Translations under genes and position numbers: made by a program
Source of the DNA: Octopus vulgaris
Lineage: Eukaryota
NCBI GenBank assembly: GCA_951406725.2
Contig: OX597826.1
Coordinates: 74,648,001 to 74,712,000, forward strand
Length of the DNA stretch: 64,000 bases
Direction: 5' to 3'
The notes under the pieces: generated by a model
The model's input: only the letters and a program-made list of their open reading frames with translations
Database searches by the model: none
What the model was told of the DNA's origin: nothing
In this document: piece after piece, positions 2,103 through 60,507 of the stretch
Layout of the letters: every line of letters starts with the position of its first letter
Position numbering within the stretch: position 1 is the first letter of the stretch

Positions 2103-2310
2103 TAATCCAAACATGAAAGCACAAAAAAACACAACAACGCGAGGACGTGGAAAAAATATAGTATTATTGGACGCTCAGGAAAGAAGGAAAGAAGGAGGGT
2201 TTAACGTTTCGAGCGGAGATCTTCGTCGGAAACATAGGAGAAGGAAAGATCCAGAGAAGGGAAGACAGAGGAAAAAAAATCGCCAACGGTACACACGAGG
2301 TCACATTTTG
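2098..2310 (-). mobile_element. ~210-bp HHR-bearing repeat (family H1), core mutated to CCGACGA
   Basis: Reverse complement of the copies at 14665 and 56757; flanked by (TA)n on both sides. Confidence 0.8.
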
Positions 2311-12887: not shown

Positions 12888-13331
<444 letters not shown>

Positions 13332-13717: not shown

Positions 13718-13842
13718 ATCTCTGACGAAGCCTAGAGAAACACCCAAGTACCTCAATTTCATTTTACTAATTACTTCAGTCTACTGGAGGAATAAAGGTA
13801 GAATGAGGTATTTTTGCCTCTTGGCTGAAACAGCTGTAAGAT
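13718..13842 (+). ncRNA. Type I hammerhead motif with long stem II (family H3)
   Basis: ATCT-CTGACGA-AGCC...GGCT-GAAAC-AGCT-GTA-AGAT. The insert pairs AGCCTAGAG/CTCTTGGCT and AAGTACCTCA/TGAGGTATTT. It starts directly after (TA)n. Confidence 0.8.
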
Positions 13843-14664: not shown

Positions 14665-14880
14665 GTGTGACCGCGTGTGTATCGTTGGCAATTTTCTTTC
14701 TCCGTCTTCCCTTCCTTGGATCTTTCCTTTTCCTATGTTTCTGACGAAGAGCTCCGCTCGAAACGTTAAATCCTCCTTCTTTCTTTCCTTTTCTGATCGT
14801 CCAATAACACTATACTTGTTCCACGTCCTCGCGTTGTTGTGTTTTCTCTTTGTGTTTTCATGTTTGGATTAACTACATAT
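14665..14880 (+). mobile_element. HHR-bearing repeat H1 with intact minimal core at 14738-14770
   Basis: TTT-CTGACGA-A-GAGC-TCC-GCTC-GAAAC-GTT-AAA; three copies in the window. Confidence 0.8.
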
Positions 14881-17623: not shown

Positions 17624-17666
<43 letters not shown>

Positions 17667-17769
17667 AGGATTAGCTCGTATACGAGTAGGTATATATTTG
17701 TAAACTTGTTGACGTCTAGCTCTGCTAGAATGGACAGGATACAAACAGGGAACAGTCATTAGTTAGAAT

Positions 17770-18063
17770 ATTGATGACGTCCTTTTCTGCTTGAATAGTC
17801 ACCTAACAAGTACAGACAGGGGGCAGATCTAATGTAGCTATAAGTCGTGATTGGGCAGAATCTGGATGACGTCCCGCTATGCTTGACTAACGAAGCGACT
17901 GGTCAAGACAGGAAACAAACAAGAGGGAGTTATAATGCAGCGATTGGTCAAAATAATGATGACGTCCCGTACCACTTGATTAAAGCCACCTAACGAAACG
18001 ATTGGTCAAAACATTGATGACGTCACGCTACGCTAGATTGACCACCTAACAGGCATTATAAAA
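17770..18063 (+). promoter_or_regulatory. Pol II promoter-like module inside H5
   Basis: Four TGACGTC(A) CRE-like sites (perfect at 18018-18025), repeated GATTGG (reverse CCAAT) and TATAAAA at 18057-18063. Confidence 0.5.
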
Positions 18064-18403
18064 CAGAGCATTTCACAAAAACTCACTAGAACCACCCAGC
18101 GAACTTCCACCATGGGTCATCACAATTGCTTAAGGTAAAAATGAATTCCTCGCTCTTTCGGAAACATCAATCTTCTGTATTGACCGCTTTCCACCACTTT
18201 GATCTGTTTTTTGTATTGAATACGTATCGCCACCGTGGGCCACTGCATCGAACACTTTGAACATATACTTCAAACTATATATCAACTATACATGAACTAT
18301 ATATCAACTATACATGAACTCTAAGATGTCTGACTCCGTTGTGTATTATAAATGAATTTCTTGTGTTTGACGGCATGAGCTGTCTCTTTTTTTATATATA
18401 ACT

Positions 18404-18445
18404 TTTTTTGATAAAGTTCATTTCAGGAACTGAAACATGTTATAA
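18404..18445 (+). ncRNA. Minimal hammerhead motif, U3-A8 variant
   Basis: TTGATAA-AGTTC-ATTTCAG-GAACT-GAAAC-AT-GTT; the same core is present in the copy at 56226-56267. Confidence 0.65.
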
Positions 18446-18867
18446 TGTATATATATAAAAATTAAAAATTGTATAATACAGCAGCATTTTCGAACTTCAT
18501 TTTTTACAATTATATATATATATACATATATATATATATCACACACAAACACACACATTTATGCACATAAACCTACACACGACCTGTTCCACCACGAAAA
18601 TCCTTACTGCCACCAACGACAACATTACCGTTATCACCACCAACATCATCATCATCATCAACAGCAATTTCAAAATCATCGCCAACAGCAATCATCCACG
18701 CATTACCACCATCACCATCACCATCACCACCACAACCAAAACTACTACATTGTCATTTCTATGTCACCACCATCACTGCCACCATATTTATACCATTCTT
18801 TAGTTCGTTCTCCTTTTTTCCTTTCATATTTCGTTTCTTTTTTCTGTTTAATTTACGCGCTTACACA

Positions 18868-19112: not shown

Positions 19113-19924
19113 CACCATGTATACTTTAACACATCCACATTTTTTACACACATATACAGATGCATACATACTCGCACACACTAACACAATGCACACACAC
19201 AAACACACACACACACAATGCACACACACAGACACACACACACACACACACACACGCCCCATGTAGAGAGCAAAACCAGGTTATGAAATTACACTTATCA
19301 TGTTGACAAGGTAAACTGTGTGAACGGGTGATTACGAAATCACTGAAACACACAAACAGCTAATAAAACCTCATGCATATCATAAGGTAGGTATTTCACA
19401 AACCTATGCCACAAAACCACTTCATTAAACGAGAAATTTGTCTAAGTCTTCCTTAAATTACTTTTCTCCCTTTGCCCGCCTGTCGTCTGCTTCTTTTTCT
19501 TTTTTCCGCCATGAAATTTCTTCTTTTCTCTTCTTAGCTTTATGTCTTACCGCTTCTAACGTCATCCTATCTTATTCCTTCCTCTAAACACATTACTTCT
19601 GAATGTTATTCAGCCTGCTACGAAGTCTCTATTACTCAAGCAATTTGTAGTCATTTCTAAATTATCTTCCGCCCGACACAAGTCCCAACTTCTATACTAT
19701 TTCTTTCGTCTTCTAGACTCGGTGTACGCAACAACCTTTTCCCGTGCTGGCATCTATCCCTCCGGTAATCAGTATGTCTGTCTGTATGGGAAGGCTTTTC
19801 GTCAGTTCTGGCTCATCTTTTACAGCTTTCAACTTTCCGACGTGAAGGAATCCATCCTCCTACGCCATTTCCCTCACTGACACCATTGCCGCCTCTCCTG
19901 AAGTCATACATGAATACATCATAA

Positions 19925-21892: not shown

Positions 21893-23338
21893 CCTGAGGT
21901 ATATAGAGTGAAATTTGATATTGTGTCACCCACGGTAAACAAATGATTAATGGTTGAATACACACAAGGAAATTCTACTTATTTACATCGTTAGTTTCCG
22001 TCCAGTTGCCTGGCAATTCTGTTGGTCATGATTTTTGTGAATAAACGCTTAAAAGGCATACAATGTGATGATCAAAATCCTCTCCAATTCCCTTCTGTGC
22101 TTTTTCTTGATACATTATTGAAAACTAAACTGTGACTTGACGCCTCGTCTTTTAAGACAGCCGATGTATCGCTGTCTTGTTCTGGAGCCTTGCTCTTCTT
22201 TTACTTATTTCCTTTTATGTTACACTTTGTGTGATATAATTTACGGACCTTTTTGAAGCGTTGTTGTGGTCATGGTGAAGTTGTCTTCTATAAAATCGCT
22301 GTTTTTGTTACTTTCCCTTGAACTAAATTTCGTTCCGTTACGGTTCCGTTTTTCTTGTTCTTCAATGCTAGCATTTGAGCCTTTCCCTTTGTTTATTTTG
22401 TTCTGCAGAGTTTTTTATCCATTCTGTTGGGGGAATTGTTGTTTCTGCAATGTTCTTATTGTTTTCTTAAACCAACCAGATGTTTTACACTTACCTGTTT
22501 ATACAGTTCTACAGTTTCTATCTTGTCTACAACCAGGTTAACTTCGAAAGTTTTTCGTTTCCTCCTGAGATAGTTTGTTGTTCTTTGCCGCGTGTTTCCC
22601 TGTCGTCTGCAGCTGTTTCAACGAGAATTTTTACTTGGTTGTTCGTCATTAAAGGTTCACTACCGTCTCTTTTTGTCAGTTGTTCAGTTCATGCCAGTTA
22701 GGAAATAATTGATTAAGCCGTTGGCAATCCTAACTGGAATACCTTGGCGCGGAATAGTTTCTTCCTTTCCTTTGAAGGTTTAGAACTTTCCTTTAGAACT
22801 TGGTCGCTACCAGTCTTTCTTGCTGCTTTTTACCACGTTAATTGTTACAATTTTCCCTAGATATTTTGTTTTTGTTTGGGATTAAAAAAAAAATTGACAT
22901 TGTTTAAGGTTTAGTAGTATGCCCTCTACAGGAGCACAAAAGTTAGACTCGTATATGCTTGCACAGAGTCAGTGTATTCGAAGCACACAATTACCTACTC
23001 ACCATAATCTGATAACAATTGATACATACATACATACATACATACATACATACATACATACATACATACAAACATACATACATACATACATACATACATA
23101 CATGCATATATATATATATATATATATAACAGTTTAGCTAGGTGTAAAATACAGCTGAAGGATGTTAAATATCCGAACAATTTACTGGTCTATATTGCCT
23201 ATATCAATAACAGGTGCAATTTATGAGTTGTGTCATTTGTTTGTATAAAATATTTAAATTGAATTGAATTTATAATTGTTCAATTTATTGTTTTGTTTTT
23301 CCGTTTCTGATTTATATATATTTATACATACATATATC

Positions 23339-23895: not shown

Positions 23896-24228
23896 GCATC
23901 CATACACAGGGGCATGTGACCCTCCATGTATGTGACCCTCCATGTATGTGTATGCACTGTGTCTGTCTGCGTGCACCTATGAAGATGTGCTTGTGTGAGA
24001 GTGTGTATGTGTATTTGTCCTTAACTCTCCGTGTGTGTTCGCGCGCTTGCACGCGTGTGTGTGTGTGTGTGTGACTCTTAGTTTCTCAGCACGAGATAAT
24101 CACATTGATAGATGTGATTATGTACGGATGGCCGACCACATCCACATTACAAGAGAAATCCGTCTTTTGTTTTCTCAGCTTTGCAACGTTAACTAGCACC
24201 CCCCATCCCCATCCCCATCTCCATACAC

Positions 24229-24829
24229 CTATTTCTTTATTACCCACAAGGGGCTAAACACAGAGGGGGACAAACAAGGACAGACATAGGTATTAAGTCG
24301 ATTACATCGACCCCAGTGCGTAACTGGTACTTAATTTATCGACCCCGAAAGGATGAAAGGCAAAGTCGACCTCGGCGGAATTTGAACTCAGAACGTAAAG
24401 ACAGACGAAATACCTATTTCTTTATTACCCACAAGGGGCTAAACACAGAGGGGACAAACAAGGACAGACAAAGGTATTAAGTCGATTACATCGACCCCAG
24501 TGCGTAACTGGTACTTAATTTATCGACCCCGAAAGGATGAAAGGCAAAGTCGACCTCGGCGGAATTTGAACTCAGAACATAATGGCAGACGAAATACCTA
24601 TTTCTTTACTACCCACAAGGGGCTAAACACAGAGGGGACAAACAAGGACAGACATAGGTATTAAGTCGATTACATCGACCCCAGTGCGTAACTGGTACTT
24701 AATTTATCGACCCCGAAAGGATGAAAGGCAAAGTCGACCTCGGCGGAATTTGAACTCACAACGTAACGGCAGACGAAATACCGCTAAGCATTTCGCCCGG
24801 CGTGCTAACGTTTCTGCCAGCTCGCCGCC
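24229..24829 (-). mobile_element. SINE family B trimer (one head, three ~185-bp bodies)
   Basis: Junctions GAAATACC|TATTTC at ~24410 and ~24595; a single TSD CCATCTCCATACAC at 24215-24228 and 24828-24841. The core GACTTTGCCTTTCATCCTTTCGGGGTCGATAAA..AGTACC resembles the Deu/Nin SINE domain. Confidence 0.9.
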
Positions 24830-25009
24830 ATCTCCATACACATGTACATAAATACACACACTGATGCACATCCATACATACACACACACACTGATTCATA
24901 CGGTTAATGTCTACACCTACGTACACACATGTAGACGCGTTCCTCAGAACACGTAGACCCCAGGTTTCAATTAAGTACACACACATGTATATTACACATA
25001 CATTTCAAG

Positions 25010-28716: not shown

Positions 28717-29137
28717 CCACCTCTACTAAAATTTGATTTTGTGTACAATGAAGTCAATATTTTTCGGTATTGAAATATGCTTAGAGCTTCGTCTTTTGTT
28801 TCCACTTCAGCAGTCAAATGGAAATGTAAGGTGCGAGACACGACAGCAGCATTCACACGCACACAATTATTAGTAACCCTTTCAAGGTTTCACACTTGAA
28901 AGGGCTACCATAAAGAACGATGATACGGGTCAGTGTTAGCACATTATGGACCATTTTTCTCTCGGGCGGTAGAGACAAGGGTCACACATTAACACAGCAA
29001 CCAACCAGCCTAGCTAATTACATTTACTATCGTTTCACCGCCTTAATTTGTCTGTTCGTCCCACTACATTTCATGTGGTATCTATCTTCCCCTTTCTCTT
29101 CTTATTCATACGTAAAAACACGTTGTCAACATAAACC

Positions 29138-29370
29138 TATTTCTTTATTACCCACAAGGGGCTAAACATAGAGGGGACAAACAAGGACAGACATAGGTAT
29201 TAAGTCGATTACATCGACCTCAGTGCGTCACTGGTACTTAATTTATCGACCCCGAAAGGATGAAAGGCAAAGTCGACCTCGGCGGAATTTGAACTCTGAA
29301 CGTAGCGGCAGACGAAATACCGCTCAGCATTTCGTCCGGCGCGCTAACGTTTCTGCCAGCTCGCCGCCTA
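29138..29370 (-). mobile_element. SINE family B monomer with 16-bp TSD
   Basis: GTTGTCAACATAAACC at 29122-29137 and 29371-29386. Confidence 0.9.
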
Positions 29371-33345: not shown

Positions 33346-33607
33346 ACATACAGTAGAGAAGAGAAATTTGAACAAATAGAGTTGTCTAAGAAGCGGTAGC
33401 GGCTTTAGTAATCGATCGCCGAAGGTTTATCGAATAAATGGGAACATTAATAAATATAAAGGGGATACGATAAGATGATGAGAATAAATGATTTAGTGTT
33501 AACATATACAATATCAGGAGAATTTAAAAGCTGATCAGATATAATTATACAGTGGGTAAAAAACGAAAACAATATTATTCAATTACCAATGATGATATTT
33601 TAATTCT

Positions 33608-34169
33608 TTGACCAAATGTGGAAGACAATTTGAACATGTTTCAGTATTATTATGGCCTCATCAGACAGTCTTCACCGTCATTGCAGAAGACATGTTTCGG
33701 TATTATTGTGATCTCATAAGACAGTCTTCACCGTTATTGCCGAAGAAGAATCAATTCATAAATATACATAAAATCTACAAGATCGTTTACTGGTTGGTGT
33801 TTTTTTTTTTTGGCAAGTGTGAAAGACAACTCTGAACATGTTTCGGTATTATTGTGATCTCATCAGACAGTCTTCCCCGTTATTGCTAAAGGGATGATAG
33901 AAGAATCACAGCATAAATGTACATTAAATCTACAAGATCGCTTGCTGGTTGGTGACTTTTGGCAAGTGTGAAAGACAACTCTGAGCATGTTTCGGTATTA
34001 TTGTGATCTCATCAGACAGTCTTCCCCGTTATTGCTAAAGGGATGATAGAAGAATCACAGCATAAATGTACATTAAATCTACAAGATCGCTTGCTGGTTG
34101 GTGACTTTTGGCAAGTGTGAAAGACAACTCTGAGCATGTTTCGGTATTATTGTGATCTCATCAGACAGT
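33608..34169 (-). repeat. 149-bp tandem repeat with one hammerhead-like motif per unit (retrozyme-like, family H6)
   Basis: Units start at 33812, 33961 and 34110, plus two older partial units. The minus strand reads ACTGT-CTGATGA-GATC..ACC-GAAAC-ATG; cores at 33658, 33714 (mutated), 33860, 34009 and 34158. Confidence 0.75.
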
Positions 34170-34410
34170 TAGGAAAATGGACTTGTTTAGAACAAGACTT
34201 CTCTAATCCTTCAATTATCTTCTCGACGCCATCTGTAGATCATGTTATCGTCTCTACATCCACTTCTCAATCAATACACCTTTTAATTAGATGGGTCGTT
34301 TACATGTTGTCTTATACTTCGCCCTCCACACTCTCCCCCCTTTCTCTCCCTCTCTTTCACTCAACCATTCCTGTATGTGTTTAGATTCGTGTATGTCATC
34401 TGCCTCTCAT

Positions 34411-35108: not shown

Positions 35109-35333
35109 CCTATTTCGTTATTACCCACAAGGGGCTAAACACAGAGGGGACAAACAAGGACAGACATAGGTATTAAGTCGATTACATCGACCCCAGTGCG
35201 TAACTGGTACTTAATTTATCGGCCCCGAAAGGATGAAATTCAAAGTCGACCTCGGCGGAATTTGAACTCACAACGTAACGCAGACGAAATACCGCTAAGC
35301 ATTTCACCCGGCGTGCTAACGTTTCTGCCAGCT
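35109..35333 (-). mobile_element. SINE family B monomer
   Basis: Colinear with 29138; short flanking repeat CTATCC. Confidence 0.85.
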
Positions 35334-36712: not shown

Positions 36713-37357
36713 ATAGTTTGTATATTATTCTGTTGAACGATGAAATTATCTCGGTAAATTTCTGCTTTTGACATCAAATCGATAACTGAAAAACGTTCAT
36801 TTCAGTTGTTTATTAATAATGGAAATAATAACTCTATATTTATGTTATTGAGTGTTTTTTACAACTGATTCCTGTATGTTTTATGAAAGACAAACATTCT
36901 TTCTTTCGTAATTACAGACAAGTGAAGATTTAATACGTAAAGACAGTGCATACATATATACATACATACGATATTTTTCATCCAACGGGTTTTAAGAACC
37001 CAATATTCAACATGCTATCATTTGTGTGTGTGTGTATGTGTGTGCGTGTGTGTGTGTAAATATAAGTGCTGGTGTCAAATGCTGGATGGGCGCATTGGAA
37101 TTCTCTTTAAATGCCTTGCTTCATCTAATGTTACCATTAACATTAAGAAAATAAATAAATAATGAAATATAAAAAGTTCCTTTTGATATTTCTGAATGAA
37201 ACATATTCCGGAAACTCTTAAAATAGTATGAGATAAATTTCTTTCATGAAAATGTATTTTATTTGGATTCCACGTCGAGTTTCATAAAAATAGTCTAACC
37301 ATATTGGTTGCATCAAGGCTTAGCCCGCATCATTTAAACACAGTTACTGAGAGAACT

Positions 37358-41397: not shown

Positions 41398-41790
41398 AAG
41401 GCGGCAGAATCGTTAGCACGCCGGGCGAAATGCTTTGCAGCATTTCCTCTGCCGCTACGTTCTGAGTTCAAATTCCACCGAGGTCGACTTTGCCTTTCAT
41501 TCTTTCAGGGTCGATTAAATAAGTACCAGTTATGCACTGGGGTCGATATAATCGACTTAATCCGTTTGTCTGTCCTTGTTTGTCCTCTCTGTGTTTAGCC
41601 CCTTGTGGGTAGTAAAGAAAAAGGTATTTCGTTTGTCTTTATGTTCTGAGTTCAAATTCCGCTGGAGTCGACTTTGCCTTTCATCCTTTCGGGGCCGATA
41701 AAATAAGTACTAGTTGGACCATGGGGTCGGTTTAATCGACTTAGACCCTTCCACCAAGACTGCTGGCCTTGTGCAAAAATTTGAAGCTAA
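41398..41790 (+). mobile_element. SINE family B dimer
   Basis: Young unit joined at GGTATTTC (41623) to an older short-tail body. Confidence 0.85.
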
Positions 41791-42889
41791 TATTATTTTC
41801 CGATTGCAATTTTTTTCCCACGGTCATACAAACAGATATGAAAGTTTATCTAAAGCAAATCCAATTCCTCCATCCAGATAGAATGTGTTAATTAGGTCAA
41901 GTAGATTTCTTTATATCAAGAGGTGTTGGAGGTGAGTGGTTAAAAGTCAGCGAGACAGCAAGTATGACACCATTTCTTTCCTGCCGCCTCTTTTCTTTTC
42001 TCTTAAAAAAGGGCGTAGACAAGTCGGGCACCGCTGGTAATTGTATGTACAAATAGTATTGTATCATCAAATATCACAAAGAAACTCTGAATGCGGAAGG
42101 ATTTTTTTCCATTGATAAAAGCATTAAAGCATTAGACATCTCACTGTTACACACAAATAAACAACTTTATCTACCGCTTGCTTTGCAGAATTGTGTTTTT
42201 CTGTAATTCGATGAAGTTTTATTTTATCTTATTTTTGTTAACTGTGATAACCCTCTCCCTACGAACAAATACCATTGTTGACACCATATCTAATTGGTCC
42301 TGAATAACGGCTCCCTCTCAGAATAAATTAAATGAGGCTTAGCGAAACTATTTAAGCTGTCACCTCCACAATTTACTTAATCAAGCTAAATCGCCAATGG
42401 CTTATTTTTACAGCTTTTTTTTTTCTAAGTATTTTTCGCTCCCGGTCAGTTGGGTCGATTACTTTGAAGGAACCCCTATGAGAATATCATATGTATGACT
42501 TGGGGCTCCTCTACGTAGTCACAACTTGTTGCTAGAAGTAGGTACTTCACCTCACTCAAATCACACCCGCCGTCTTCAAAGATGTCGTCACATTAGATTA
42601 TGTAGTCCTAGTTGTACGTAGGGAAGTGTCCGTTTGTATCAAGGTGCCAAGATCAAATCTTATTGGTCCATCGCGGAAATTCAGTGACATGCTTAGTACA
42701 CTCTCATCCAGGAAGTTGCCGAGGACCGTTCGTCAGAGAAAGACGGGAAAGACATGTTGGTCACTGATTGAATATCTTTGATCATTGATCGTTCGGGGCT
42801 GAACGGCACCGTCGTATCACGGCTTGAACACCATTAATCAAGAGAATTGATCAGCACCATTAATCATAAAACATTATGAAAGCTGAGAA

Positions 42890-43122
42890 AGGCGGTGAGC
42901 TGGCAGAAACGTTAGCACGCCGGGCGGAATGCTTAGCGGTATTTCGTCTGCCGCTACGTTCTGAGTTCAAATTCCGCCGAGGTCGACTTTGCCTTTCATT
43001 CTTTCAGGGTCGATTAAATAAGTACCAGTTATGCACTGGGGTCGATGTAATCGACTTAATCCGTTTCTCTGTCCTTGTTTGTCCCCTCCATGTTTAACCC
43101 CCTGTGGTCAATAAACAAATAA
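42890..43122 (+). mobile_element. SINE family B monomer
   Basis: GGCGGTGAGCTGGCAGAAACGTTAGC...CCCCTGTGGTCAATAAA. Confidence 0.85.
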
Positions 43123-45904: not shown

Positions 45905-46320
45905 CTAAAATTGACATCGAAAGCATAAAAAGCAAAGTTGACCTCAGCTGGATTAGAACTCGGTACATAAAGAGAATACTTATTTCTTTACTACCCACAG
46001 GGGGCTACACACAGAGGAGACAAACAAGGACAGACAGACGGATTAAGTCGATTATATCGACCCCAAGGCGTAACTGGTACTTACTTTATCGACCCCGAAA
46101 GGATGAAAGGCAAAGTCGACCTCGGCGGAATTTGAACTCAGAACGTAACGGCAGACGAAATACCGGTAAGCATTTCGCCCGGCTTGCTAACGTTTCTGCC
46201 AGCTCGCCGCCTTTAAGGAGCTACGAGGACATCCCTTCCAGACGGTCACCTATGCCGATCAACCACAACCCTACATAAAGAGAATACTGCAGAATTTTTC
46301 ATCTGATGCTGTAAGAATTA
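45905..46320 (-). mobile_element. Young SINE B (45981-46211) nested in a very old SINE B, 17-bp TSD
   Basis: TACATAAAGAGAATACT at 45964-45980 and 46272-46288; the old body lies to the left and an old head remnant to the right. Confidence 0.8.
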
Positions 46321-46337: not shown

Positions 46338-46950
46338 AGCGGCGAGCTGGCGAAATCGTTAGCGCGTTGGACAAAATACTCAGCCGCATTCGTTCTTGCC
46401 CTTACGTTCTGTGTTCAAATGCCGCTGAAGTTGACTTTGCTTTTCATCCTTTCAGGGTCGATGAAATAAGTACCAGTCGATCACTGGGTCAGTGTAACCA
46501 ACTAACTTTGTGCCTATAGCAAAAAAAAAAAATAGGATTTAATAATAATTCTAAAGCGGCGAGCTGGCAGAAACGTTAGCGCGCCGGGCGAAATGCTTAG
46601 CGGTATTTCGTCTGCCATTACGTTCTGAGTTCAAATTCAGCCGAGGTCGACTTTGCCTTTCATCCTTTCGAGGCCGATTAAATGAGTACCAGTTACACAC
46701 TGAGGTCGATATAATCGACTTAATCCATTTGTCTGTCCTTGTTTGTTCTCTCTGTGTTTATCCCCTTGTGGGTAGTAAAGAAATAGGTATTTCTTCCGAC
46801 TCTGTAGTTTAGAGTTCAAATTCTGGTGACGTCGACATGGCTTTTATCTTTTAGAGATCGATAAAACATATACCAGTCGTGTAGTGGGGTTGATGTAAAT
46901 GACTTGCCTCCTCCCCTAAAAATTTCTAGCATTGTCCCCAAATTAGAAAG
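46338..46950 (+). mobile_element. Old SINE B followed by a SINE B dimer
   Basis: Copies at 46338-46520 and 46556-46950; dimer junction GGTATTTC at 46786. Confidence 0.85.
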
Positions 46951-54483: not shown

Positions 54484-55478
54484 TTTTTTAATATTTTTAA
54501 ATCGTCGTATCTGGTGGAGCCATCATTTACGGAGCTTCAATGTTACTCTTATAAAATGAAATGCGAAGCTTACCCTTTACCAGTTATAATGATTATATGC
54601 TGGGGAACTCGGAACTCATAACCACTGCCACATCGCAAAACAGAGTTTTAGTTTTGAAATCTCCATATTTGTTTTCTAATGTCTGAAATTTTTCTTCTTA
54701 CAAACATAGTAAAATGTCTGAAATGAGCGGATAACATCGAAGGCAATTATTTGTATTTAAATATTTTTCAAAAAATTTGATTTGTAAAATTTCAGTTCAT
54801 TAAGGTGTACTTATTCAAAATAAATGAAAATATGATCGGTTTTGAGTTTCTTTTAAAAGTTTGATTTAAAAGATATAGTACTTCAAGATATAGTGATGGC
54901 GTTGGTGTATCTAAGCAGGTGTGTGTGTGTGTGTGTGCGTACCGACTTCGATTTTGTCTTTCATCTTTTGTGGTCGATATAATAAGTACAGGTTGAACAC
55001 TGGGAGCGATGTAATCGGCTAGGCTCATCCCACTCGCCCGAAATTGCAGGCATTGTACCAAAATTTGAAATCAATATTGAAAATAAACTTGAGCTGGCGG
55101 AATTGTTAAAATATATACCAGTTTAACACTGGGGTCTATTTAATAGACGTAGCACTTACCTCAAACCAGCTGGTTGGTGTCGAAATTTGAAACGAATATT
55201 TAAAATAAACCACAACGAACTAAGAAAGAACAACTTCCTGGTAGGTCAATGGCATGAAATTTGATAAATAAATTAAGAGGTGACGTACTGACTGGCATAC
55301 GAAAAATATAATTATTGTTTTATTGAAGTGTTTTCTTACAGAAAGGAAAGAAAAATCTAACAAAAATTGTTAACCTCTGTCGACGTAAAGAAGTAATTTA
55401 AAGAAATTAGGAATTAATTACTCTAAAATAATTTACATATCACGGAAATGTTGTTGCATAGCAAGTGACCTGATCTGA

Positions 55479-55820
55479 AGGCAGCGAGCCGGCAGAATCG
55501 TTAGCACGCCGGGCGAAATGCTTAGCGGTATTTCGTCTGTCTCTACGTTCTGGGTTCAAATTCCGCCGAGGTCGACTTTGCCTTTCATCCTTTCGGGGTC
55601 GATAAGTTAAGTACCAGTTACGCATTGGGGTCGATGTAATCGACTTAATCCGTTTGTCTGTCCTTGTTTGTCCTCTCTGTGTTTAGCCCCTTGTGGGTAG
55701 TAAAGAAATAGGTACACGTGTCTGTGGAGTGCTCAGCCACTTACACGTTAATTTCACGAGCAAGCTGTTCCGTTGATAGGATCAACTGGAATCCTGGTCG
55801 TCGTAACCGATGGAGTGCCA
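55479..55820 (+). mobile_element. SINE B fused at GGTA to SINE tail i
   Basis: AAAGAAATA-GGTA-CACGTGTCTGTGGAGTGC at ~55703-55732. Confidence 0.85.
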
Positions 55821-55834
55821 CGATATATCTATAT

Positions 55835-56087
55835 ATTTCGTTTTGGGATTTGGTTTGCAAGATTCTTGATGTGAGTTCGTGCGTTGAAGCATATTCTGTT
55901 ATGTCTGAGGAGAGTCATTCTCTTTTAATGCCTTATAATTTAACACACTCACCGGTGAAAACTATTGAAAAGCTTGCAACGAAAATTTTAGAAAAATAAA
56001 TAAGAAATAAGTGGAAATTTTACCGGTGAGTGTGTTTAATCATAAGGCACTAAAAGAGAATGACTCTCCCCAGACACAACAGAATAC

Positions 56088-56160: not shown

Positions 56161-56166
<6 letters not shown>

Positions 56167-56721
56167 AAAAAAATGAAGTTCGAAAATGCTGCTGTATTAT
56201 ACAATTTTTAATTTTTATATATACATTATAACATGTTTCAGTTCCTGAAATGAACTTTATCAAAAAAAGTTATATATAAAAAAAGACAGCTCATGCCGTC
56301 AAACACAAGAAATTCATTTATAATACACAACGGAGTCAGACATCTTAGAGTTCATGTATAGTTGATATATAGTTCATGTATAGTTGATATATAGTTTGAA
56401 GTATATGTTCAAAGTGTTCGATGCAGTGGCCCACGGTGGCGATACGTATTCAATACAAAAAACAGATCAAAGTGGTGGAAAGCGGTCAATACAGAAGATT
56501 GATGTTTCCGAAAGAGCGAGGAATTCATTTTTACCTTAAGCAATTGTGATGACCCATGGTGGATGTTCGCTGGGTGGTTCTAATGAGTTTTTGTGAAGTG
56601 TTCGGTTTTATAATGCCTGTTAGGTGGTCAATTCAGCGTAGCGTGACGTCATCAACGTTTTGACCAATCGTTTCGTTAGGTGGCTTTAGTCAAGTAGAAC
56701 GGGACGTCATCATTATTTTGA

Positions 56722-56726
<5 letters not shown>
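56161..56726 (-). mobile_element. Second copy of H5
   Basis: Reverse complement of 17943-18510, lying between (TA)n tracts. Confidence 0.9.
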
Positions 56727-59800: not shown

Positions 59801-59884
59801 CCAACTTACTGGCGTGTAGTTATACACCGGACAGATTTTACGAGACCACTAGTTCCGGATGAGTAATACTGATAACCATGTATA

Positions 59885-60507
59885 AGGCGGCGAGATGGCA
59901 GAATCGTAAGCACGCCGGGCGAAATGCTTAGCGGTGTTTCGTCTGCCGTTACGTTCTGAGTTCAAATTCCGCCGAGGTCGACTTTGCCTTTCATCCTTTC
60001 GGGGTCGATTAAATAAGTACCAGTTACGCACTGGGGTCGATATAATCGACTTAATCCGTTTGTCTGTCCTTGTTTGTCCCCTCTGTGTTTAGCCCCTTGT
60101 GGGTAGTAAAGAAATAGGTATTTCGTCTGTCTTTACGTTCTGGGTTCAAATTCACCAAAGCCGACTTTGCCTTTCATTCTGTCGGGATCGATAAATTAAG
60201 TACCAGTTGCATATTGGGGTCGATCTAATCGACTGGCACCCTCCCCCAAAATTTCTGGCCTTGTGTCTATAGCAGAAACGACTACTGATAACGGCGAGAT
60301 GGCAGAATCGTTAGCACGCCGGGAAAAAATGCTTAGTGACATTTCGTCTCTTGCTACGTTCTGAGTTCAAATTCCGTCGAGGTCGACTGTACACTTCATC
60401 CATTTCGAGATCGATAAAATAAGTACCAGTCGTGCAGTGAGGTCGATGTGATCGACTAGTCTCCTCCCCTGGAATTACTGGCCTCGTGCCAAAATTGGAA
60501 ACCAATA
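59885..60507 (+). mobile_element. SINE B dimer followed by an old SINE B
   Basis: Junction GGTATTTC at 60117; the next copy starts at ~60292. Confidence 0.85.

Follow-up and report, generated by a model that had tools for sequence, protein, structure and literature searches.

The window analysed here, a single stretch of 64,000 nucleotides, is AT-rich and microsatellite-rich, lacks a long coding frame and reads like animal genome. It contains two solitary copies, A and B, of a repeat denoted H5, lying 38 kb apart on opposite strands, and each copy carries a compact hammerhead motif with the heptamer UUGAUAA, which had been reported in the initial annotation and is present in both, at 18408-18414 (plus strand) and 56263-56257 (minus strand). 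The parts of the element are arranged as follows.

17710..18063, plus strand: promoter-like 5' part of the element, with five TGACGTC motifs, ATTGG boxes and a TATAAAA at 18057-18063
17943..18510, plus strand: repeat common to copies A and B, bounded 3' by a (TA)n run 69 nt past U17
18389..18461, plus strand: helix I, weak beside the core, with a distal A/U helix of ~12 bp
18408..18414, plus strand: core of copy A in the sequence, U3-U4-G5-A6-U7-A8-A9
18415..18431, plus strand: helix II, 5 bp (18415-18419 with 18427-18431), with a 7-nt loop
18432..18441, plus strand: G12-A13-A14-A15.1 in the sequence, CAUG palindrome, U16.1 (18440) and U17 (18441)
56161..56726, minus strand: copy B, 5'-truncated relative to copy A, with (TA)n on both sides and the motif at 56263-56230

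The core boxes N3-UGA-N-N8-A and GAAA are present, nucleotides 3 and 8 are paired as U3-A8, and the palindrome ACAUGU spans 15.1 to 16.1, followed at position H17 by U17, which places the predicted cut at 18441|18442. Cleavage after A18442 instead was dismissed on inspection, since the palindrome is lost and helix I would start with U.U. Helix II has no bulged base after A9, and its closing pair is A10.1-U11.1 in the window copies and G.U in most copies, in place of the G10.1-C11.1 of the Penelope-like element (PLE) consensus, to which published exceptions exist. From the core outward, helix I reads A-U, U.U, A-U, A-U, U.U, G-C, U-A, with pairing at five of the first seven positions; in its proximal part a single pair precedes a U.U mismatch.

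Hammerhead motifs with other 3:8 pairs lie in the same window, and as had been claimed, three of the four possible Watson-Crick pairs (U-A, C-G and G-C) are found.

13040..13090 (core 13047), plus strand: G3-C8 minimal hammerhead with a 7-bp helix I and a 5-bp helix II
14737..14771 (core 14741), plus strand: C3-G8 minimal hammerhead with a 4-bp helix II, CG palindrome, U17 and a 4-bp helix I
56833, plus strand: second C3-G8 copy
near 2200, minus strand: decayed third C3-G8 copy
34164, 34015, 33866 and 33664, minus strand: C3-G8 cores in a 149-nt tandem
55962..55991, plus strand: H8, a damaged minimal hammerhead with the U3-A8 core UUGAAAA at 55965-55971
55892-55960 and 56018-56086: arms of the inverted repeat around H8 (63 of 69 matching, z -16), adjoining a (TA)n run

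These motifs were counted with a blind descriptor that ignores positions 3 and 8 and demands at least 4 pairs in helix II, a palindrome, U-H, the first helix I pair and at least 4 of 7 helix I pairs; block-wise dinucleotide shuffles of the window (150 or 300) served as the null, and the thresholds were set after the candidates had been seen. The scan returns five minimal type I hammerheads belonging to three families, each Watson-Crick at 3:8 (U-A, C-G and G-C), against 0.37 matches per window in 150 shuffles, where 16 of 56 matches (~29%) are paired at 3:8. With a palindrome of at least 2 required, the same five remain and the null falls to 0.12 per window (300 shuffles; 10 of 37 paired), and at the stringency of H5 there are three real matches, compared with a shuffle average of 0.023 per window (a match in 7 of 300). 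The H5 matches thus exceed the shuffle null, and H5 is therefore a real motif. Pairing in all three families, compared with 16 of 56 shuffle matches, gives p ~0.02, or 0.007 with H8 included. When helix I pairing is no longer demanded, a U-A match at 19303 and an unpaired C-A match at 36786 are gained under a null of 1.88 per window, so these are attributed to chance; relaxing helix II adds an unpaired U-U match at 21954 under a null of ~1.9 per window, likewise attributed to chance and belonging to no family.

The second U3-A8 motif, H8, has the annotated UUGAAAA and is unrelated to H5 in sequence. It is solitary and keeps the core letters, GAAA, an AAUU palindrome, U16.1, U17 (55988) and a 3-bp helix I (CUA/UAG). 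Its helix II, which falls short of 3 pairs, consists of one pair (G55972-C55980, a G10.1-C11.1) around 7 nt, with a pair probability of 0.0. The motif is detected only with helix II relaxed to 1 bp, where such loose criteria give 1.94 matches per shuffled window; with published extra features added as criteria fitted afterwards, the null is 0.037 per window (11 of 300 shuffles), and this rarity is why H8 is read as a remnant and not as noise. It is likely a damaged remnant of a second Penelope-like hammerhead family. The annotated "two independent families" of U3-A8 cores make a weaker case than annotated: H8 is unrelated in sequence, but the two H5 copies make up one family and the helix II of H8 has collapsed. 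Exact-pattern scans gave no H8 siblings in metagenome or viral contigs.

The G3-C8 motif is the best-formed minimal hammerhead in the window. It has a bulged G after A9, a G10.1-C11.1 pair closing helix II, an AUAU palindrome and U17. An inverted repeat (12944-13045 and 13071-13172, 99 of 102 matching) carries this motif at its apex, and without the inverted arm the helix I and II pair probabilities of the motif are 0.7-1.0. H8 likewise sits at the apex of its inverted repeat, which taken alone could be a foldback element. These two elements are unrelated, and in each the motif tops a long inverted repeat that turns at, or close to, a short palindrome located only a few bases 5' of the core; each motif also lies beside an inverted copy of its own 3' part, and the inversion points suggest foldback or template switching near the hammerhead.

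The C3-G8 type is represented in addition by a 149-nt tandem repeat at 33560-34200 (minus strand), in which CUGAUGA...GAAACAUG recurs in four units with damaged cores between them and helix II consists of one pair. This tandem, which shares GAAACAUGUU with H5, is retrozyme-like yet apparently decayed; it fails the blind descriptor and was left out of the family count. Further decayed motifs of the C3-G8 type occur at 13722-13740 (plus strand) and ~2190-2225 (minus strand), in which helix II is disrupted or U4 has changed. Decay proceeds freely in solitary copies. The window also holds a SINE-like dispersed repeat of ~240 nt in about ten copies with 89-95% identity, including those listed below.

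24227-24832, 29135-29369, 35109-35333, 41399-41750 and 42889-43121: copies of the ~240-nt SINE-like repeat
45977-46213, 46553-46789, 55477-55714 and 59884-60120: further copies of the ~240-nt SINE-like repeat

Copies A and B of H5 are 97% identical over 598 nt, and copy A has a longer 5' part that reaches a (TA)n run near 17660. All 11 substitutions between them fall at 17971-18105 and none between 18106 and 18510 (Fisher p ~1e-6, for a breakpoint picked after the fact). The substitutions stop ~40 nt past the TATA-like box, 5' of 18106, and the next 400 nt contain none. This gives the copies a mosaic look, such as gene conversion or a pLTR template switch would leave. The upstream TGACGTC, ATTGG and TATAAAA motifs match by consensus what we take to be CRE, CCAAT and TATA elements, with a presumed role as a promoter; of the 12 matches listed for the window, eight fall in the two H5 elements, and the repeated TGACGTC with the TATAAAA would fit a pLTR promoter. 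A bacterial promoter scan was set aside as not relevant to this genome.

No reverse transcriptase (RT) or GIY-YIG frame linked to H5 was found in the window, and none of nine short frames near the motifs matches Pfam, so the PLE membership of H5 rests on its architecture; truncated copies often lack the RT/GIY-YIG ORF. The hallmarks of PLE insertion, namely 5' truncation, inverted 5'-truncated copies and a microsatellite bias (PMC8557442), are represented here by the (TA)n flanks, the truncated copy B and the inverted repeats at H8 and G3-C8, and a microsatellite lies 69-109 nt downstream of the motif in all five motif copies measured. Both window copies of H5 are likely passengers. Rfam gave no family match to 18340-18500, even at E 10, and no hammerhead either among the window matches listed (150 of 181) or for the motif regions searched separately; since it misses even the well-formed G3-C8 motif, the models seem blind to minimal forms. 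Its miRNA matches were dismissed as microsatellite and hairpin artefacts, and an exact-pattern scan found no H5 kin in metagenome contigs.

In public sequencing runs, H5 is more widely represented, with 20 of the 24 runs listed (8 studies, four organisms) containing at least half of the words of the element. Variation among copies was read from contig pieces of four runs over 18325-18500 (176 nt) at 80% likeness and a 2% share, involving 172 pieces from X7 and 223 from X5 (two DNA-type runs), and one each from X19 and X1, the latter guessed as RNA and not used for expression; contig depth is not equal to copy number, and contigs drop rare variants and do not reveal RNA ends. In these four runs no variant at or above 2% occurs at 18408 (position 3), at 18413 (position 8) or at the two U.U mismatches of helix I. 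The sole substitution at or above 2% in the 176 nt is 18415 A>G, with 98.8% (X7) and 99.7% (X5) of depth and also in X19, but not in X1. With G at this site the A10.1-U11.1 pair becomes G.U, which preserves pairing; both window copies carry the A, a shared minority allele. Three 2-nt deletions in simple runs are also found among the contig pieces. H5 is thus a homogeneous family, and the one-pair proximal helix I is a state of the family, not decay in the two window copies. Among the loose ends listed (12 of 32), contigs join other DNA at several points in the stretch, and several 5' joins fall inside the motif; one X5 contig, with a TA deletion allowed for, joins other DNA exactly at 18441|18442, a single contig that carries too little weight.

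These data bear on the proposal that 3:8 covariation reflects selection on catalysis. Among copies the covariation is not borne out, neither position varying at or above 2% and only one site of substitution being found in 176 nt; a near-invariant stretch, in contigs that lose rare variants, gives no power to test selection or covariation. Between families the proposal retains part of its ground: all three pair, which lends modest support to the known tertiary pair and agrees with selection acting over the long term on the established C3-G8 pair. The initial annotation had also named failure of proximal stem I to form, with no cleavage, as grounds against its reading, and this is partly what is found, with one pair and then a U.U across copies.

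In the most stable monomer fold predicted for H5 no hammerhead forms, one hairpin taking the core and another taking G12-A14; the pair probability of helix II in monomers is 0.11-0.20, with 0.11-0.12 in copy A, where a competing UUCAG/CUGAA hairpin keeps it low, and that of the pair 1.1-2.1 is 0.00. Forcing the monomer to form helix II and the pair 1.1-2.1 while leaving the core open costs 4.6-4.8 kcal/mol for H5, compared with 5.2-5.3 for the C3-G8 control and 1.7 for G3-C8. Relative to the best alternative, the double-hammerhead dimer is less stable by 11.7-13.0 kcal/mol for H5, 27.1 for H8, 20.6 for C3-G8 and 5.0 for G3-C8; for the H8 and C3-G8 dimers, the best alternative uses flanking palindromes. 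The C3-G8 control dimer being no better (20.6), the dimer energy does not single H5 out, and because this control scores as badly and the model lacks a core term, these energies were not taken to prove inactivity. As modelled, folding energies rank motifs and do not decide activity. The ACAUGU self-duplex is predicted at -4.6 kcal/mol.

We consider it probable that H5 is a minimal type I hammerhead with a U3-A8 core, likely in the 3' pseudo-LTR of a Penelope-like family, with cutting predicted to be slow if any, confined to the dimer and probably protein-aided. Helix III would arise only between two copies, pairing through ACAUGU. Two motifs carried in tandem on a transcript from the source element could pair in this manner and so create helix III; the cut would fall after U18441, and U3-A8 would keep the tertiary pair that positions nucleotide 8. 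The U-A, C-G and G-C cores would likely represent old, separate element lineages, each keeping the pair, and not tuning at this locus.

A different account, unlikely but deserving serious attention, is that H5 is a dead relic, derived from a hammerhead-bearing ancestor and recently spread without cleavage, with U3-A8 inherited and not now under selection. The one-pair proximal helix I fixed across copies, the non-consensus closure of helix II and the competing hairpins that win in the predicted folds all point this way, as do the reports that hammerhead mutants left insertion of the Anolis element in vitro unaffected (PMC11167929) and that Naiads thrive without canonical hammerheads (PMC8557442). 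By contrast, every core position is intact, as are the palindrome and all 5 bp of helix II; 18415 A>G, the single common substitution, keeps pairing, and the ~12-bp distal helix could hold helix I in register. The role of PLE hammerheads themselves is described as unclear (PMC8557442). The initial annotation had suggested tuning to slow cleavage, in which selection in two families favoured U3-A8 for its slower cutting, for example to spare uncut RNA for reverse transcription. The 3:8 pairing of all three blind-scan families (p ~0.02), the features expected to be slow that H5 combines (U17 and a weak helix I) and the report that uncut RNA is the main template of the Anolis element (PMC11167929) speak for it, but PLE hammerheads with the usual C3-G8 core are already very slow (PMC4209133). 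The literature yielded no cleavage rate for U3-A8 in such a context, 3:8 is invariant (<2%) among copies, and H8 cannot form helix II; in an AT-rich genome, moreover, two transitions through U.G offer an easy path from C-G to U-A, and a U3.G8 row exists (PMC4209133). Such selection on U3-A8 is thus improbable.

There is very little likelihood that H5 is a chance look-alike derived from an intron end, with a U-rich tract that leads into UUUCAG|G at 18426 and a possible donor AG|GUAAAA at 18134|18135. Both splice-like motifs are present in the sequence, and Penelope pLTRs hold a 5'-UTR intron ending at the hammerhead (PMC8557442, PMC4209133), but motifs of H5 quality occur in only 7 of 300 shuffles, and helix II, GAAA, the palindrome and U16 are left unexplained by a splice site. 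Intron and hammerhead coexist in Drosophila Penelope, so the splice and hammerhead readings are not mutually exclusive. The possible acceptor (18426|18427, plus strand, as is the donor) lies within loop II, and splicing there would therefore remove the 5' half of the motif. A further reading appears quite doubtful: that one animal genome holds Penelope-type hammerheads with three 3:8 pairs, including a natural, well-formed G3-C8 (13047), and that the abundant H5 is an attenuated ribozyme (U3-A8, U17 and a U.U-broken helix I) cutting only when the reverse transcriptase of the element refolds it. If true, the three-core set would be a natural series for testing the role of the hammerhead in retrotransposition.

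As an observation, U3-A8 extends the host range of a known variant and adds little else; side-by-side U-A, C-G and G-C motifs could address the role of PLE hammerheads, which U3-A8 alone does not. The G3-C8 motif at 13047 is a better lead. A set of small PLE hammerhead variants, reportedly cleaving as dimers, was described by Lunse, Weinberg and Breaker (RNA Biol 14:1499) and is by its title of the same class as H5; it may already include U3-A8 and G3-C8 variants. Natural G3-C8 was not found in a literature search that missed most subscription papers, so its absence is unproven, and it is absent from the 56 published PLE rows of the PMC4209133 alignment, where our own count gives 53 C3-G8, two U3-A8, one U3.G8 and no G3-C8, with U17 in 24 of 56. 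The implied novelty of U3-A8 does not survive comparison with the literature, natural examples having been in print since 2011 (PMC3088659) and 2014 (PMC4209133), and H5 is an ordinary new example of this known variant. Natural covariation from C3-G8 to U3-A8 was reported by Perreault (2011, PMC3088659), where such ribozymes are stated to have been shown active in vitro already. These share with H5 the same compensated core, but come from a survey of all domains of life with many bacteria and phages, whereas H5 lies in an animal repeat and would need a partner copy. The non-LTR retrozymes, defined by tandem repeats with a hammerhead per unit (bioRxiv 10.64898/2026.07.22.740005), were rejected as an identity for H5 and H8, both being solitary.

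Among characterized PLEs, the hammerhead of the Anolis Poseidon element (PAc) needs the protein of the element, and a C3G/G8C double mutant was partly rescued; in vitro, hammerhead mutants were without effect on insertion, and uncut RNA was the main template (PMC11167929). Unlike H5, which no ORF follows in the window, PAc has a natural C3-G8 that overlaps the ORF start; it is a PLE hammerhead, as H5 probably is, and its 3:8 pair was tested, with cleavage needing protein (PMC11167929). For metazoan PLE hammerheads in general, no monomer activity and low or slow dimer activity are reported in PMC4209133, which also describes ~1,300 U3-A8 minimal hammerheads in Schistosoma Penelope-like elements (2014). 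In its alignment, UUGAUAA is the core of S. mansoni 3 and UUGAAAA, with U17, that of S. mansoni 4. These Cercyon PLEs (Sm3 and Sm4) thus have the same heptamers as H5 and H8 and the same type I layout, with a palindrome replacing helix III, U17 in Sm4 and mostly single dispersed copies. H5 is unlike them in having no bulge after A9, a 4-nt palindrome, A-U or G.U at 10.1:11.1, a U.U-broken helix I, no linked ORF in the window and another host. Beside the core, helix I has at least two contiguous pairs in all 56 published rows (PMC4209133), versus one in H5. The PLE hammerhead of Marsupenaeus japonicus (Fig. S3, PMC4209133) differs from H5 in its C3-G8, A17 and contiguous 5-bp helix I, and resembles it in having no bulge after A9, an A10.1-U11.1 pair and a 4-nt palindrome flanked by A15.1 and U16.1.
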